A DNA stretch of 64,000 bases, from assembly GCA_951406725.2 (NCBI GenBank), contig OX597831.1, forward strand, positions 67,332,001-67,396,000. The letters are read 5' to 3'. The notes under the pieces were generated by a model. That model was not told the origin of the DNA. It worked only from the letters and a program-made list of their open reading frames with translations, and searched no databases. Source of the DNA: Octopus vulgaris. Its lineage: Eukaryota. A program made the position numbers and the translations under genes. Below are positions 9,226 through 64,000 of this stretch, piece by piece (the first letter of the stretch is position 1; the number at the start of each line of letters is the position of its first letter).

Positions 9226-9984
9226 CTCTCTATATATAAACGGCAGTTTGTCTGTCTGTCAGGTTGTACCCTCACCCTGACCACGGCTTTCAACCGATTC
9301 TGATGAAACTTGACACACACATAGCCCAATGTCATAATTCAAAACTAACGCAGCGAAAATTTTGAAAAGTTCCCCCAGTTCTGAAAAAAAATCGATAAAT
9401 TCGACATGGGTCGAGAATCTAAGCTTTTTATATGCAACACATTTTCTACAGACTGTCTAGGGAACGCAACTCGACCTTTTTAACTCTCGGAACACGTGGG
9501 GTAAGTATCCCAAAATGTATAAAAATGTACAAAAATGGCAAAAAAAGCGGGCAGCAATGTGAGTGACAACAACGAAAAAGTCAAAAGTGACCAAACTGAA
9601 CAAACGAATGGAAAAGGTTTTTTGATGCACACGACAAAGGCGGTTTATGATAAACCAAGAGTTTGCAAGTAGCATCCGAGGACCCTTAGGGTACGTCAAA
9701 AATTTAAGGTAAAACGTTCGGGGTGGTAGTTATAAAGAAAGTGTAAACAAAAAAAGTATTCGAATAACTTGCGGCTGTTGGGGGTAAAGTCTCGAATGTA
9801 ATTTCTTCCTGGTAGGAATTGGTTGGGTTGAATTATCGATAGCTGTTTGATAGTTATTTGGGAGTGAAGAGAAGACATTGCAACCTACACATGCGCCTTC
9901 GTTCCCTAGAGGGAAAGGACTAGATTGGGATTAGTCGTTGCCTACTAGGGGCTTTTACATACCCGGGCAACGCCGGGGTATGCT

Positions 9985-9986
<2 letters not shown>
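9225..9986 (+). mobile_element. Non-autonomous Helitron
   Basis: 5' A|TCTCTCTATATATAAA followed by (GTCT)n; 3' hairpin CCCGGGCAACGCCGGG then CTGG|T. Confidence 0.75.
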
Positions 9987-10043
<57 letters not shown>

Positions 10044-10191
10044 GGTTAAGTGATTGAGATTCAAGTGAATTCTAAAGAATCCACATGAATATGGTCCTTA
10101 ACTAGGATGCACCGGAAATCTATATGGTGTTAACCATACGACAAGTGAGGTGATTACAAATAGGAAAAAAGCAACAAGAATGGATTAAAAT

Positions 10192-10277
10192 CTCGGTACG
10201 ATCGTTTCGTACGAGGACATCTTTAATAAGCTACAAAAAATACAGTGAATACAGATGGCTCGTACTCGTCAGCCGAA
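10192..10277 (-). ncRNA. Type I hammerhead ribozyme (Penelope pseudo-LTR, left arm)
   Basis: Minus strand reads UUCGG-CUGACGA-GUACGAG...CUCGUAC-GAAA-CGAUCG-UA-CCGAG: complete core, stems I and II, palindromic mini stem III, GUA cleavage triplet. Confidence 0.85.
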
Positions 10278-11581
10278 AAAACATCAGAGAATTCCCAAAC
10301 ATCAAAAGGGGTAGATACAAAAGAGGTTGTAAGATTAACTGCATTGAGGAAAGTTCCATTCATGGAGATCCGATGAAAGGTTTTAAACTTACAGAATTTG
10401 TGCATGTCTACATATAGCTCATATTAAATTGCTAATCAAGTTGTGTGAAGAAATTTTCGGATACAGTCATGCAAAATTTCTGAAAATCCGAGTAAGAAGC
10501 AAAATGACTGTCATATCGTGTAGAGGAAAGTCTGAGTAAAAAGCAAAGTGACTGTCATAACGTGTAGAGGAACAGATTGATATTGAAATTTACAAGAATC
10601 GCAGATAAGTTCGATTCTTGGAGATCCGATGAAAAGTCTTGAACTTACAGAATATGTGCATGTCCTTATAGTTCATAATCCAGTTTTGTGAAGAGATTTA
10701 GGGTACAATCATGCGAAAATATCAGGGAATCCGAATGAGAAGCAAAGTGACAGTCTTATACTGTAGAGGTGCAGGTTGTTAATGAATTTTACAAGAATCA
10801 CAGAGAGAGGAGGAAGGAAGTAGAATTTAATCAGTTACTGCTATTAAAGCTATCAAAGAGAAAGGGAAGGGGAAGCTAAGGGGATGGGCACAAATTGATA
10901 CTACCAGAAAATCTAAGCTTGTTTAGTGCAAAATTCGAACTGAGGTCAACAATTTATTTCTTTATTTATAAATGTTACTATTAATAGATTGTCAGGTTAC
11001 AATGAGAGGTCATTAGAAAGGAAAGAAAAATGGGGTTGTTTTTTAATGAAACCAAACAATTATATTATTATTATACTATACTATAATACACTACACTATA
11101 TTATATTATATTATTTTATATTATATTATATCACATCACAATACACTACGATAGGTTTGGGATTAGCAGAATTAATAATTAGTGTAAAAGAAACCTAAGA
11201 GATTTAACTAACTAATTCTTATATATGGGTTAAAGTGAAATAGACTAAGAAATGGAGATAAAAATAGAGCAAAAATTTAAATTATTAATATGGTCCAATA
11301 GAAATAAATCAAATAATTTAAATCAATAAGTATTAAATAGTACAATCAGAGAGAGAATATAATCATAGCTAGTTAGATCTTATCTTTCTAGTTAAATATA
11401 TAATATACTATGTAGGAGTGATATATAAGTCAAAGTGAAATTTATACAAAGTAATTCCAGTATACAGTTATCAATTGAAATATCATTTAAAGTATTTAAG
11501 AGTCTTAACTCGAGCATGTATACAAGAATTCCAAGTTCAATTCTGCTGTTTAATGGAATTTCTCTATTATTTCATTTCATT

Positions 11582-12945
11582 TCATTTGGGTTTGAGTCCA
11601 TGCTCAGGCCAAGTCGATGCTTCCATGGAGCAAAGTTGGCAACCTACTCTGCTATTTTTATAGGGTTTTGCTCTTCTGACTAATTCCCAATTAAGGTTAT
11701 ATTTGATATTATTGATTTTTAGTTCCCAAATTTTACTAGAAAGAGTGGTGCTATCAGCTTTATGACGTAATTTGAAGGATGAGAGATGGTTATTCAATAT
11801 CTGTTTAAAATTTACAGTACATCCAACATAAGAGAACTTATTATTATCTGTGGTTACGGAGCATTTGTAGATTATGTTAGTTAACCCGCATAAACCAGGG
11901 GCCGGGCATTTTGATTTAATTCTGCAATTACATCTAGGAGCATTATAATTAGAGGTGGAATAACTTGAGGATAGAAGTCTCATATTACTGTTGTTCGAAG
12001 CAGAGCGGGTAAATTTATCATAATTTTGATTATTGTTATTATCTAAAAAAACTCTATCATTATTGTAGTTAATATTATTATCTAAAATAGTATTATCATT
12101 TATTGGTATTCTTACATTTTCATTTGGTTCTAAAGTACCACTTTCATTATTAATATTATTGGTGCTGCTATCTAAAATAATGTTATCATTATTGTAGTTA
12201 ATGTTATCTCCTAAAGTAGTATTATCATTTGTCGGTATTCTTACACTATCGTTTGGTTCTATAACCCTACTATCATTATTGATATTGTTGATGCTATTAG
12301 TATTGCTGTCGGTATTGTTTTCCAAATGTGTAGTGTTGTTGCTGATAATATTGTTACCCTCATTCACTGTACTTACATTCCTGGTATTATTCAAATTATT
12401 AACATAATCATTCCTATTTATGTTATTATTGTTGTTAATAATTCCATAGCTATTGGTTATATTTATTATATGACATTCCTTATTATTATTATTGTTGCAA
12501 TTATTACTTTCCGTACTGTTATTACAATTTTCCATTGTATTTTTATTTTTATTGATTAAATTTTTTCTGGCTAGTTTTATGTTATTATTATTGATCTTAG
12601 CTATTAAAGTGGACATATTTGGGAGAGTTGAATAAGAAATTCTGACTGTCTTTTTAGAAATAATTTTATGATATCTATGAGAGGATGGGAAATTTTTTTC
12701 TAGAATTGTTTTGAATCTACTCTGAATATCTGATGAAACCGCACAGTTAAAATGGATGTTTAGCCATATTATGTCTTTCTTATTAAATTTCTTAGAATTT
12801 GAGTTAGGGCTGCTAGAATTTTTCCCACTAGAGTTAGGGTTGTTAGAATTAATCCTACCATCATCAGATTCTTTGTATTTATTAATGTTCCTGTTAGCAT
12901 GTTTGCTAGTTTTATCCAAGTTTATTTTATCCTTATTATACTTAT
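11582..12945 (-). pseudogene. Penelope-like ORF fragment: RT thumb, Asn-rich insert, CNC..CP..C linker, GIY-YIG endonuclease
   Basis: IIWLN...NFPSSH...ISYSTLPNM; RCNCRIKSKCPAPGLC; IIYKC...YVGCT..FKQILNNH; CQLCSMEA. The intact C-terminus (CQLC...LNSRIELGKSCIH..KYFK*) survives in the right arm at 12967-13101 (+). The TTG start in the track is artificial. Confidence 0.85.
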
Positions 12946-14282
12946 TATAATATCCTTATTATACTTTGCCAACTTTGCTCCATGGAAGCATTTGAAATAC
13001 TAATGTATAGAAATAATAGAGAAATTCCATTAAACAGCAGAATTGAACTTGGAAAATCTTGTATACATGCTCGAGTTAAGACTCTTAAATACTTTAAATG
13101 ATATTTCAATTGATAACTGTATACTGGAATTACTTTGTATAAATTTCACTTTGACTTATATATCACTCCTACATAGTATATTATATATTTAACTAGAAAG
13201 ATAAGATCTAACTAGCTATGATTATATTCTCTCTCTGATTGTACTATTTAATACTTATTGATTTAAATTATTTGATTTATTTTTATTGGACCATATTAAT
13301 AATTTAAATTTTTGCTCTATTTTTATCTCCATTTCTTAGTCTATTTCACTTTAACCCATATATAAAAATTAGTTAGTTAAATCTCTTAGGTTTCTTTTAC
13401 ACTAATTATTAATTCTGCTAATCCCAAACCTATCGTAGTGTATTGTGATGTGATATAATATAATATAAAATAATATAATATAATATAGTGTAGTGTATTA
13501 TAGTATAGTATAATAATAATATAATTGTTTGGTTTCATTAAAAAACAACCCCATTTTTCTTTCCTTTCTAATGACCTCTCATTGTAACCTGACAATCTAT
13601 TAATAGTAACATTTATAAATAAAGAAATAAATTGTTGACCTCAGTTCGAATTTTGCACTAAACAAGCTTAGATTTTCTGGTAGTATCAATTTGTGCCCAT
13701 CCCCTTAGCTTCCCCTTCCCTTTCTCTTTGATAGCTTTAATAGCAGTAACTGATTAAATTCTACTTCCTTCCTCCTCTCTCTGTGATTCTTGTAAAATTC
13801 ATTAACAACCTGCACCTCTACAGTATAAGACTGTCACTTTGCTTCTCATTCGGATTCCCTGATATTTTCGCATGATTGTACCCTAAATCTCTTCACAAAA
13901 CTGGATTATGAACTATAAGGACATGCACATATTCTGTAAGTTCAAGACTTTTCATCGGATCTCCAAGAATCGAACTTATCTGCGATTCTTGTAAATTTCA
14001 ATATCAATCTGTTCCTCTACACGTTATGACAGTCACTTTGCTTTTTACTCAGACTTTCCTCTACACGATATGACAGTCATTTTGCTTCTTACTCGGATTT
14101 TCAGAAATTTTGCATGACTGTATCCGAAAATTTCTTCACACAACTTGATTAGACATGCACAAATTCTGTAAGTTTAAAACCTTTCATTGGATCTCCATGA
14201 ATCGAACTTTCCTCAATGCAGTTAATCTTACAACCTCTTTTGTATCTACCCCTTTTGATGTTTGGGAATTCTCTGATGTTTT

Positions 14283-14368
14283 TTCGGCTGACGAGTACGA
14301 GCCATCTGTATTCACTGCATTTTTTGTAGCTTATTAAAGATGTCCTCGTACGAAATGATCGTACCGAG
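14283..14368 (+). ncRNA. Type I hammerhead ribozyme (right arm copy)
   Basis: Same as the left copy except GAAAUGAUCGUA (C>U in stem III, a U-G wobble) and one change in the stem II loop. Confidence 0.75.
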
Positions 14369-14395
14369 ATTTTAATCCATTCTTGTTGCTTTTTT

Positions 14396-14429
<34 letters not shown>

Positions 14430-16479: not shown

Positions 16480-18079
16480 TATTACACTATAACTTAGAAT
16501 GAAGTTCCGTATTGATTTTACGATTATTAGGACATGCATTCGATTATCAGATCGGGTAGTACCTTGCATCCTTAAAAAAGGTACTTCGTTTCATGTTGCT
16601 CCAATACTCTCATTTAAAAGTCAGTAACAGTGACACCTGGGGGTTAGCTAAGTCTAAACTCCAAACAAAATCCGGATAAGTTCCGGTTTCATGAGCTTCT
16701 AGTGCAAAAAGAAGATATATTAAAAATCAATATAATACTGTATTAAAAACCGGCGAGCTAGCAGAATCGTTACCATGCCGGTCAAAATGCTTAGCGGCAT
16801 TTCTTCTGTCTTTACGTTCTGAGTTCAAACTTCACCAAAGTTTATTATGCCTTTCATCCTTTCGGAGTTGATAAAATAAAAACCTGTTGAGCATTGGGGT
16901 CGATGTAATCCACTTACTCCATCTCCCGAAATAGCTGGATCTGTACGAAAATTTGAAGTCAATATCATAGTGCTTAAAGATATATTATACAAAATGTTCA
17001 CCTTTGCTGAAGCAAAATTTGACACTTTACGTTGTACGTAAATATAATAACCAGTATTGGCAGGGATGCGATGATCCACTACAGCAAGAAAAAGAATGAA
17101 AATAGGAACTATAGTTTGGGGTGGGGGACACATTATCTATCAGTCTTTCCGTGTGTCTGTAAAAGAAACCTCTTACAAGAGCTTAGTGGATTTTATTTCA
17201 AAGTAAATTTTGGCCTATATACTGAGGCCAAATTATGTTTATTCCATGAAACGATCTCCATTGCGTATTAGAAGTCATCAACGAAATCGCTGGTATCCTG
17301 TCAACAACTCCTGCAATACCGTGATCTACATAGCACTTTTCAGCGGGCCTGAAACCTTTGAAAATTTACGCGCAGTGCAATGAATCAAACGTGCCCAGAC
17401 AATATGATATACTTGGGCAAAAATAAAGCAACTTGTCTGTTAGCAAAAATACAGACAAAAGAATTATTTTTGCAACTAAGAAAGACAGAAAACAAGATTT
17501 CTTTTAAGATGCCTATTTTATGCTCACGGTATATTTTATGGGAAAAAGTTGGAAATTTTTTAGTTTTAATGTACAAAATTCTGACCAAGTCAAAATCTTC
17601 TTACCCCTTTAATCAAAGAATCCACGAACCTCTGCACTATACAGTCACCATCCGATGCTAGCACAAAGCTCACGCTGAAATTCCTCTACACTATATCCTT
17701 TTGATAGCATACCACGGTATACCTAGCTCATACTCAACATAATCACCAACCCCTCTCAACTGTAGATACCATAACCTACTTTATACTATCGGTGTACGAT
17801 TAAATGAAAGCTCGCTGCAAGCGCAAGTTAATACGATGATAATAAACTGGTTTATCAATGTACAAACAAAGAATAATTGAACTTTAGCATAACTCCAGAT
17901 ACCGGATAGCAACAAACACAGAGCAGCACATATTCAGCACTGTATATATGCATATATGTATATATGCATGTCTGCCTGTCTTTGTATGAACATTTGTATG
18001 TATGTATGTATGTATGTATGTATGTATGTATGTATGTATGTATGTATGTATGTATGTATGTATGTATGTATGTATGTAT

Positions 18080-18687
18080 AGAGTTAGCTAAAGGAGAACG
18101 ACCTCCACATAAACCAAAAAAGAGGTATAAGGACTTGCTGAAGGCTTCCTTAAGAGATGCTTGCATCTCTCCTGACACATGGGAAGGCACAGCTATTGAT
18201 CGTAGCAGGTGGAGAAGGATTGTGCATGAGGGGACAGCCACTTTTGAGAAATCTCGAGTTACACATGAGAAAGTAAGGAGGGATGTCAGGAACGGCATCG
18301 CTATTACACTTCCAGATGGGAAGGGTCTTCCTATGATGCTGATATGCAGTGTCTGTGCAAGACCCTGCCTCAGTAAAGCTGGACTCAAGAGTCATCTTCG
18401 TAGTCATAAAGCGAGACAGATGAGTGACAACCTGGCTACTAGTGGTGGTGTTAGACACCATACTAATCATATCTGTCAGACATGTGAAAGAGAGTGTAAT
18501 TCGGCAGGAGGACTTAAACGACATGCAAAGGTACATGAAGCCCAGTTACAACTACAGCCGCTATTACCGGTAAAGGTTTTAGCTGCCAATTCTGTACAAG
18601 ACATTGTAGATCTTTAGCTGGGCTAAAAAGTCACATTCGATCACAGCACCAATAACAGTTAACGATAACGAGGGGGCAGCCATAATA
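18080..18687 (+). mobile_element. RTE-clade LINE 3' end with three C2H2 fingers
   Basis: ELAKGERP..PKKRYKD...WE..AIDRSRWR, then CSVC..HLRSH, CQTC..HAKVH and, after a frameshift, CQFC..HIRSQH*. Flanked by (TATG)n. Confidence 0.85.
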
Positions 18688-31513: not shown

Positions 31514-31618
<105 letters not shown>

Positions 31619-31619
31619 T

Positions 31620-32899
31620 CCCAGACTGCTGAAACTCATCACCTCCTTTCACGACGGTATGCAGGGAACAGTGCAGTTTGACGGATCGCCCTCGGAGTCG
31701 TTCCCCATCCAGAGTGGAGTGAAACAGGGTTGCGTTCTGACGCCGACGCTCTTCGGAATTTTCTTCTCTCTTGTCCTGTCCTATGCCTTCAGAACGTCCG
31801 ACAACGGAGTGTTCCTCCACACCAGGGCTGATGGTGGATTGTTCAATCTTGCGCGCCTCAGAGCTAAGACCAAAGTCCGTCAGGTGCTGATCAGAGAGAT
31901 CCTCTTTGCTGACGATGCCGCCCTAACATCATACAACCAGCCGGGTCTCCAGAGGCTGGTCAGCTCCCTGGCGGATGCCTGCCAAGAGTTCGGCCTTACC
32001 ATCGGCCTGAAAAAGACAGAGATCATGGGCCAGGACGTCGGAGGGGTCCCCAGCATCAGTGTCGGTGACCACAGCTTGCGGGTGGTGAACGAGTTCACTT
32101 ACCTGGGATCGACGGTCTCCAGCAGCCTGTCCCTCGAGCCGGAGCTGAACAGACGGATTGGGAAGGCTGCTGCTGCCATGGCTAAGCTCTCCAGGAGAGT
32201 GTGGGAAAACAACATGCTCACAATAACCACCAAGATCGCAGTGTACCGAGCCTGCGTGCTGAGCACCCTACTCTGCGGCAGCGAGAGCTGGACAACATAC
32301 ACCCGGCAAGAATGCCGCCTCAGCGGCTTCCACATGCGGTGTCTTCGACGGATCCTTGGCATCTCCTGGAAGGACCGAGTACCAAACGGAGTCATCCTAG
32401 AACAGACTAATATGCCAAGCATGCATGCCCTCCTCGTGCGGAGACGACTGCGCTGGCTCGGACACGTCTGCCGCATGCAGGACGGTCGCATGCCTAAAGA
32501 CATCCTGTACAGCGAACTCACCACGGGATCCCGACCCAAGGGACGTCCACAGCTACGATACAGGGATGTGTGCAAGCGCGACCTGAGGACTGCCAACATC
32601 TGTGTGGACACGTGGGAGGTAACAGCTGCTGACCGCTCTGCCTGGCGTCGGACAGTGAGGAAAGGCGTTTCCATGGCTGAGGAAAGGAGAGCACAGCTGT
32701 GGTCGGACAGGCGGGACAGGAGGAGGACAACTGCAGCAACACCCCACACGTACCCATCGATGTTCGTGTGCAGCAACTGTACCAGGGACTGCCACTCTAG
32801 AATTGGACTGTTCAGTCACAGCAGACGCTGCTCATCATCAAAGTAGGCCCCACCCTTGGCGCGACCCATTGTCTATCAAGACAGACGGGGGAGAAGAGA

Positions 32900-33633: not shown

Positions 33634-64000
<30,367 letters not shown>

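Follow-up and report, generated by a model that had tools for sequence, protein, structure and literature searches.

How do two nearly identical copies of one retroelement end come to face each other, head to head, inside a single TA repeat, and does such an inverted repeat have a role as a source of double-stranded RNA? The question is raised by a locus in a window of 64,000 nucleotides of the Octopus vulgaris genome (the whole stretch of DNA analysed here). We identify the element as a dead, 5′-truncated copy of a high-copy Penelope-like element (PLE) family, and we consider it probable that its two head-to-head arms arose when the two strands of a (TA)n target, once cut, acted as coupled primers. 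An arrangement of inverted copies head to head, tailed at one end, is itself the published layout of PLEs, and the one-sided tail has already been described in words in the accessible parts of PMC8557442 (Figure 2 legend) and PMC3846280. The window locus itself is transposon debris.

The window copy and its family

The features of the locus are collected in Table 1. The arms share 1,422 matching positions in a local alignment and are 0.5% apart, a near-perfect inverted repeat as the original prediction had it. Small differences amount to six isolated substitutions and a 1-nt indel beside a mismatch at 11528; the larger ones are 24 nt missing from the right arm and 43 foreign nucleotides that stand in the left arm in place of 18. 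Both outer ends adjoin TA runs, which agrees with the predicted insertion in (TA)n and makes a target-site duplication unreadable. To the left of the TA run and outside the PLE, a GC-rich hairpin at 9963–9987 resembles a Helitron-type 3′ end.

Table 1. Features of the inverted Penelope-like element in the window
Feature	Position	Strand
(TA)27.5 target microsatellite, left part	9987..10041	
Tail, 117 nt, left arm only	10043..10159	minus
Left arm: endonuclease C-terminus and 3′ UTR/pLTR	10160..11642	minus
Hammerhead motif, type I, intact core, palindromic stem III, 44-nt stem II extension	10191..10278	minus
24 nt kept in left arm, deleted from right arm at 3-nt microhomology	10408..10431	minus
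43-nt 3′ tip of unrelated LINE with (GAAAT)n tail, replacing 18 nt of endonuclease coding	11574..11616	minus
ORF remnant: end of Asn-rich insert 1, thumb, Asn-rich insert 2, CxCx5C linker, GIY-YIG-type endonuclease	11582..12955	minus
Unpaired spacer: element body, in longer tailed arm only; ends at 12940	11643..12940	minus
Junction filler, 25 nt: successive re-copies of the long arm's last 9–13 nt	12941..12965	plus
Right arm: last 44 ORF codons and 3′ UTR/pLTR; ends at the family's untailed terminus	12966..14400	plus
Second hammerhead motif	14282..14369	plus
(TA)14.5 target microsatellite, right part	14398..14426	

The enclosed 1.3-kb ORF fragment that had been predicted corresponds to a 457-aa stop-to-stop frame (12955 to 11582, minus strand), 92% identical to residues 590–1035 of an intact copy. 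The reverse transcriptase (RT) core is absent, the C-terminus is broken by the foreign insert, and a conserved Arg of the endonuclease, presumably a catalytic residue, has become Ile.

A search of the 2.8-Gb genome (227 contigs) with the pseudo-LTR (pLTR) as query gave 1,004 candidates; of the 40 that were scored, the best are 97–99% identical. Full-length copies, the search for which had been suggested as a check, do exist: uninterrupted ORFs of 1,071–1,072 aa are carried by two of the 20 long loci retrieved. These are L036 (G000:C9:84175500-84185400, 1,072-aa open frame) and L038 (G000:C11:54126500-54136400, 1,071-aa open frame). Since the arms of L036 differ at only 1 of 1,399 sites, the family moved very recently. 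Both intact ORFs have YRDD and a C-terminal endonuclease-like block. Pfam returned no family for the window ORF, the two intact ORFs or two homologues, and a PDB sequence search with the alignment returned 0 matches; the GIY-YIG label is based on alignment with homologues and on the Hydra alignments in the accessible part of PMC8557442. The one named protein match comes from Octopus sinensis.

Judged by its motifs, the family falls in Hydra, a clade of C-terminal EN+ PLEs; the family is new, the clade is known and the layout published. The available text of Craig et al. 2021 (PMC8557442) defines Hydra by RWK, DKT, a CxCx5C linker, no CCHH, CxxC plus CxH, hammerheads and (TA)n targets. In the octopus family we find RIRWR at residues 35–39 (a conservative K>R for RWK), DKT at 124, CNCRIKSKC at 931 (CxCx5C), CQLC at 1028 and CIH at 1059; the endonuclease aligns without CCHH, with CxxC and CxH surrounding a conserved E and N, and insertion prefers (TA)n as in Hydra. 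The same motifs are shared by 14 homologues at 34–41% identity. The Hydra tendency to stay below 3 kb, which the same source states as a tendency and not as a rule in the part available, is not followed: the family is ~4.7 kb long because of its Asn-rich inserts and a 1.3-kb 3′ UTR.

The clades named in the original prediction (Naiad, Neptune and Poseidon) thus give way to Hydra. Naiad has an N-terminal endonuclease, DKA and no canonical hammerhead, whereas here the endonuclease is C-terminal, the motif is DKT and a hammerhead is present; Neptune has a CX2-5CxxC linker and CCHH, whereas here the linker is CxCx5C and CCHH is absent; Penelope/Poseidon has CCHH, DKG and no linker zinc finger, whereas this family has CxCx5C and DKT without CCHH. 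The identification as a PLE with inverted pseudo-LTRs, on the other hand, is supported by family layout and ORF features alike: pLTRs, partial tandems, an inverted 5′-truncated copy, a one-sided tail, and a single ORF with RT and GIY-YIG-type endonuclease, as in EN+ PLEs generally. The two Asn-rich inserts, about 155 and 213 aa long, are absent from ten homologues. Shared indels within them keep the frame in 8 of 9 cases, compared with 7 of 42 in the UTR and 2 of 4 in the ORF core, a pattern that triplet slippage alone could favour.

Termini, junctions and the origin of the arms

The left arm extends 117 nt past the end of the right arm, a tail that the original prediction did not mention. In full-length copies this stretch separates the pLTR end from the 5′ body/ORF, and it stops ~57 nt upstream of the first ATG. 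Copies across the family have two fixed 3′ termini, the tail end or the pLTR end, both at (TA)n; we infer that the former is an RT start site (site A) and that the latter, where the right arm of the window copy ends, is another (site B). Three tail-only arms end 11–13 nt beyond site B. The tail is almost invariant across subfamilies whose bodies diverge by ~10%, which makes it a candidate RT-binding element. The tail of a sister copy folds with a z-score of −3.5, and covariation analysis of 12 sequences gave 0 compensatory pairs among 36. A hairpin with an 8-bp inner stem stands near the tail end, at 10060–10085 (minus) in the window and in family tails.

Exact terminus patterns, which miss mutated ends, gave 94 and 176 forward-strand matches in the genome and point to a few hundred family ends. 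Both terminus lists are complete for chromosomes C1 and C2 up to 204 Mb, and they comprise 34 tailed and 53 untailed ends there, with 14 tail-out pairs within 12 kb. All 14 inverted pairs are mixed, one tailed end with one untailed (P = 3.1e-5 if the choice were independent), and a mixed partner is present for 14 of the 34 tailed ends, far above chance. The pairing extends to 33 simple junctions picked from search hits, which include these 14 pairs and omit the complex loci L052, L068, L069 and L078: one end of each kind occurs in 32, the exception being L036, with both outer ends untailed and the tail internal. The tailed arm is the longer one in 16 of the 32 pairs, and the untailed arm is longer or equal in the other 16. 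By class, 19 of the 33 junctions show microhomology (1–5 nt in 16 of these), 4 are blunt and 10 contain filler.

At the window junction, the element match stops at 12940; the filler then re-copies the last 9–13 nt twice and starts a third time before a 1–2-nt overlap with the right arm. The predicted 15-nt duplication is found at 12929 and 12952 and turns out to be one piece of this iterated filler, which also includes a 10-nt palindrome (12943–12952). Between the arms there is neither TA nor any other target sequence. Contigs from five public runs placed on the spacer and junction cover family sequence and depart from the window at 12940; in four public runs, 12945–12964 of the filler lies in a coverage gap, which says nothing on its presence in other animals.

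Under coupled priming, the element's endonuclease would cut both strands of the TA repeat. Reverse transcription would then be primed at site A by one DNA end and at site B by its partner, the template being either a single uncut RNA or two RNAs from one source, and the cDNAs would stop at about 2.9 kb and 1.4 kb. The end of the long cDNA would slip, re-copy its last 9–13 nt and join the other end at the short microhomology. By their sequence, the window arms come from one source, as they are 0.5% apart and 2.0% from the nearest of 8 comparable copies, although gene conversion could account for their identity instead. Of the 6 pairs whose arms exceed 680 nt, 5 have arms closer to each other than to other copies; for L069 and for pairs with arms shorter than 400 nt this is not clearly the case. 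We lean towards a version in which one complex assigns each start site to one target strand on a single RNA. The filler could have been written by the RT, and could as well come from host end-joining; that such a single-RNA complex operated and that the element's telomerase-related RT also wrote the filler by repeated slippage is, as a combination, doubtful.

Twin priming of L1 offers a likeness, with both target strands priming on the element RNA and microhomology at the point of inversion. In L1 the inversion leaves a single 3′ end, whereas both arms of the octopus family carry it, and therefore strand displacement or two RNAs would be needed here.

A second likeness is to PAc, a Poseidon element of Anolis carolinensis (Frangieh et al. 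2024, PMC11167929). According to the accessible text, this anole PLE cuts and extends both strands of an AT-rich target in vitro, starts at two internal RT sites that bound a tail, uses uncut RNA and inserts independently of the hammerhead, features that the octopus family would share. It differs in clade and in its tail, which is 30–40 nt long and lies inside the ORF start, whereas that of the octopus family is 117 nt and upstream of the ATG. In the same available text, the start site is not different between the strands, a point against coupled priming, and coupling within one molecule is not addressed.

The best-surviving alternative is a fold-back or self-priming template switch, in which one cDNA or antisense template snaps back and is re-copied into the second arm. 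Such copying would account for arms 99.5% alike and for the palindrome in the window filler. Among the 33 junctions, four are palindromes or close to it, with truncation points no more than 15 nt apart (a perfect palindrome in L062), as self-priming predicts, and this counts against coupled priming. Junction palindromes in Adineta vaga Penelopes were indeed read as self-priming on an antisense template in the accessible part of Arkhipova et al. 2013 (PMC3846280). However, the other 29 junctions are not palindromic, and the right arm in the window ends exactly at the family's untailed terminus. Moreover, a fold-back can neither add a tail nor exceed the 5′ extent of its template, and one or the other would be required in the 16 of 32 pairs with the tailed arm shorter, since there the untailed arm has no tail to be copied and the tailed arm does not reach as far 5′. 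Coupled priming is favoured over fold-back because all 14 pairs on C1 and C2 are mixed and because either arm can be the longer. Template switching, which the original prediction had put forward, therefore stands at most for the final joining step and not as a fold-back origin. Taken by itself, the window locus would formally allow its long arm to have been copied by fold-back; as the general explanation we regard fold-back as unlikely.

Hammerheads, read-through RNA and later changes

A hammerhead near each outer end had been predicted, and both are present, with cores starting at −10272 and +14288 and predicted cuts between 10197 and 10196 and between 14363 and 14364, respectively. Stem I has 6 bp, stem II has 7 bp plus the structured extension, and stem III is palindromic; in the plus-strand motif, a private C>T makes one stem III pair a U-G wobble. 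The identification rests on core letters, a constrained fold and family conservation: in 87 copies, 41 hammerheads have the same sequence and 66 fit a strict pattern for the young-type core, and an older subfamily retains the palindromic stem III through a two-sided change. An Rfam scan with a cut-off of E<=1 picked up microsatellite noise but no hammerhead; the z-scores of the folds, −1.4 and −2.7, are modest, and the most stable fold of the monomer is 4–6 kcal/mol lower in energy than the active one. Four further loose core-pattern matches occur in the window, at +9300-9359, +59707-59774, -62185-62129 and -57196-57152.

A palindromic stem III implies dimer activity, as stated in the available part of PMC4209133, which suggests that the ribozyme needs a second sense copy. 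As had been predicted, a sense hammerhead does lie near the 3′ end whichever strand is read, which is true geometrically. In a read-through RNA, however, the stem would likely trap the ribozyme and cleavage would be unlikely, because there is one sense copy facing an antisense partner of −161 kcal/mol, compared with −18 to −21 kcal/mol for the ribozyme fold. Both arms keep sequence downstream of the cut site, so the RNA templates would have been uncut. As passengers of the pLTR, the hammerheads would likely be inactive in the window copy.

It has also to be asked whether the locus is a functional dsRNA source (an ADAR substrate or a supply of endo-siRNA) with ribozyme-defined ends, a reading compatible with an origin by coupled priming. 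Any read-through RNA would form a 1.4-kb stem of 99.5% identity, and rotifer Penelopes yield small RNAs (PMC3846280, accessible part). Against this, the ribozyme would be sequestered, the arm mutations look neutral, A>G and T>C are not in excess among the rare variants of the window copy, and among 135 frames between 0.7 and 42 kb, a scan that short or untranslated exons escape, there was no host-gene exon but only transposon debris. These frames gave transposon domains, one LINE-end-like zinc-finger frame and one weak DUF match. We therefore consider a functional dsRNA source quite improbable. Among 157 aligned family pieces tested for hyper-editing, an A>G cluster was seen in no copy. The strongest skew, in L070 (573-915), is T>C in 5 of 9 rare variants and in 6 of 13 arm-to-arm differences; it is weak and possibly a trace of antisense-strand editing. 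One putative RNA run gave a single contig, which belongs to an older subfamily and not to the window copy.

As to the surroundings, the first host exon found, near 42.2 kb, encodes a CBM_14 chitin-binding domain and a likely signal peptide; it is followed on the plus strand by exons for a hexosaminidase/chitobiase-like GH20 enzyme (CHB_HEX, Glyco_hydro_20), all within 41967–60440. A LINE fragment with a 412-aa RT frame (RVT_1) lies at 31608–32846 (plus), and a zinc-finger end related to the LINE of that frame lies at 17910–18617.

The predicted young age of the insertion is borne out by the 0.5% between its arms and by three private substitutions per arm (about 0.2%); at all 6 substituted positions the family letter is present in one arm. 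The 24-nt deletion is absent from other retrieved copies. The LINE tip contains a 28-mer with 108 exact genomic matches and shares GAAAT with its insertion site; its donor, which we take to be CR1-like, has an ORF matching RVT_1 (E 2.6e-30). The tip was probably inserted after the element, but it may instead have been captured during reverse transcription. This young, (GAAAT)n-tailed LINE family often leaves a 45–50-nt tip only, and 2 of the 6 donors retrieved (L056-L061) break within a few bases of the window copy, where a 3′ hairpin is predicted.

A history in which one TA repeat was hit twice, independently, and the copies were later homogenised by gene conversion is very unlikely. The (TA)n preference would allow repeat hits, and the arms of L069 and L070 are 1.4% and 3.9% apart, but target sequence is missing between the window arms, and the strict tailed/untailed pairing (14 of 14), with partners for 14 of 34 tailed ends, is not what independent hits would give. 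Although long-read assembly is known to fail at inverted repeats, an assembly artefact or long-read fold-back chimera is the least credible reading, because the arms differ by the LINE tip, the microhomology deletion and a one-sided tail at the family terminus, arm-specific differences of the kind already invoked in the original prediction, and because the layout recurs across the family with varied junctions.

Relation to known elements and significance

The accessible parts of PMC8557442 show how closely the family follows the Hydra clade, including Hydra-1_Obim of Octopus bimaculoides: DKT, CxCx5C, no CCHH, CxxC/CxH and RWR for RWK are shared, as are the (TA)n target and a type I hammerhead with palindromic stem III, and an inverted 5′-truncated copy is listed there for Penelope-13_HM. 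At about 4.7 kb and 1,072 aa, the family departs from a clade generally below 3 kb (2,507 bp in Hydra-1_Obim), and its 44-nt stem II extension contrasts with loops of about 3–10 nt in the Hydra rows. The 117-nt tail is a further difference, tails of 30–40 nt being usual. Hydra-1_Obim, the only octopus Hydra family in those parts, has another hammerhead sequence and is without long inserts. The A. vaga elements Pen2a, Pen3 and Pen4, as described in the available text of PMC3846280, likewise have inverted pLTRs with a tail on one, and Asn-rich stretches that keep the frame are inserted in A. vaga Penelopes at two places, one separating the RT core from the thumb and the other the RT from the endonuclease; the A. 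vaga families differ from the octopus family in clade, host, low copy number and target-site duplications.

The origin of PLE inverted repeats is named as an open question in the accessible portion of PMC8557442. The literature covered, mostly outside subscription papers and supplementary figures, contained no count of tail asymmetry and no argument for twin or coupled priming in PLEs, and the available part of a 2026 preprint on PLE-derived retrozymes (10.64898/2026.07.22.740005) does not cover octopus.

The window locus is ordinary and its mechanistic value modest. The long and easily scored tail of the family, on the other hand, provides a rule that can be counted: each inverted insertion has one tailed and one untailed end. 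This rule tells twin priming from self-priming and is testable in the existing in vitro PLE system. Long Asn-rich inserts are now shown in a second PLE clade. The family has seeded the octopus genome with many near-perfect hairpin templates, which are relevant to RNA editing only where they are transcribed.
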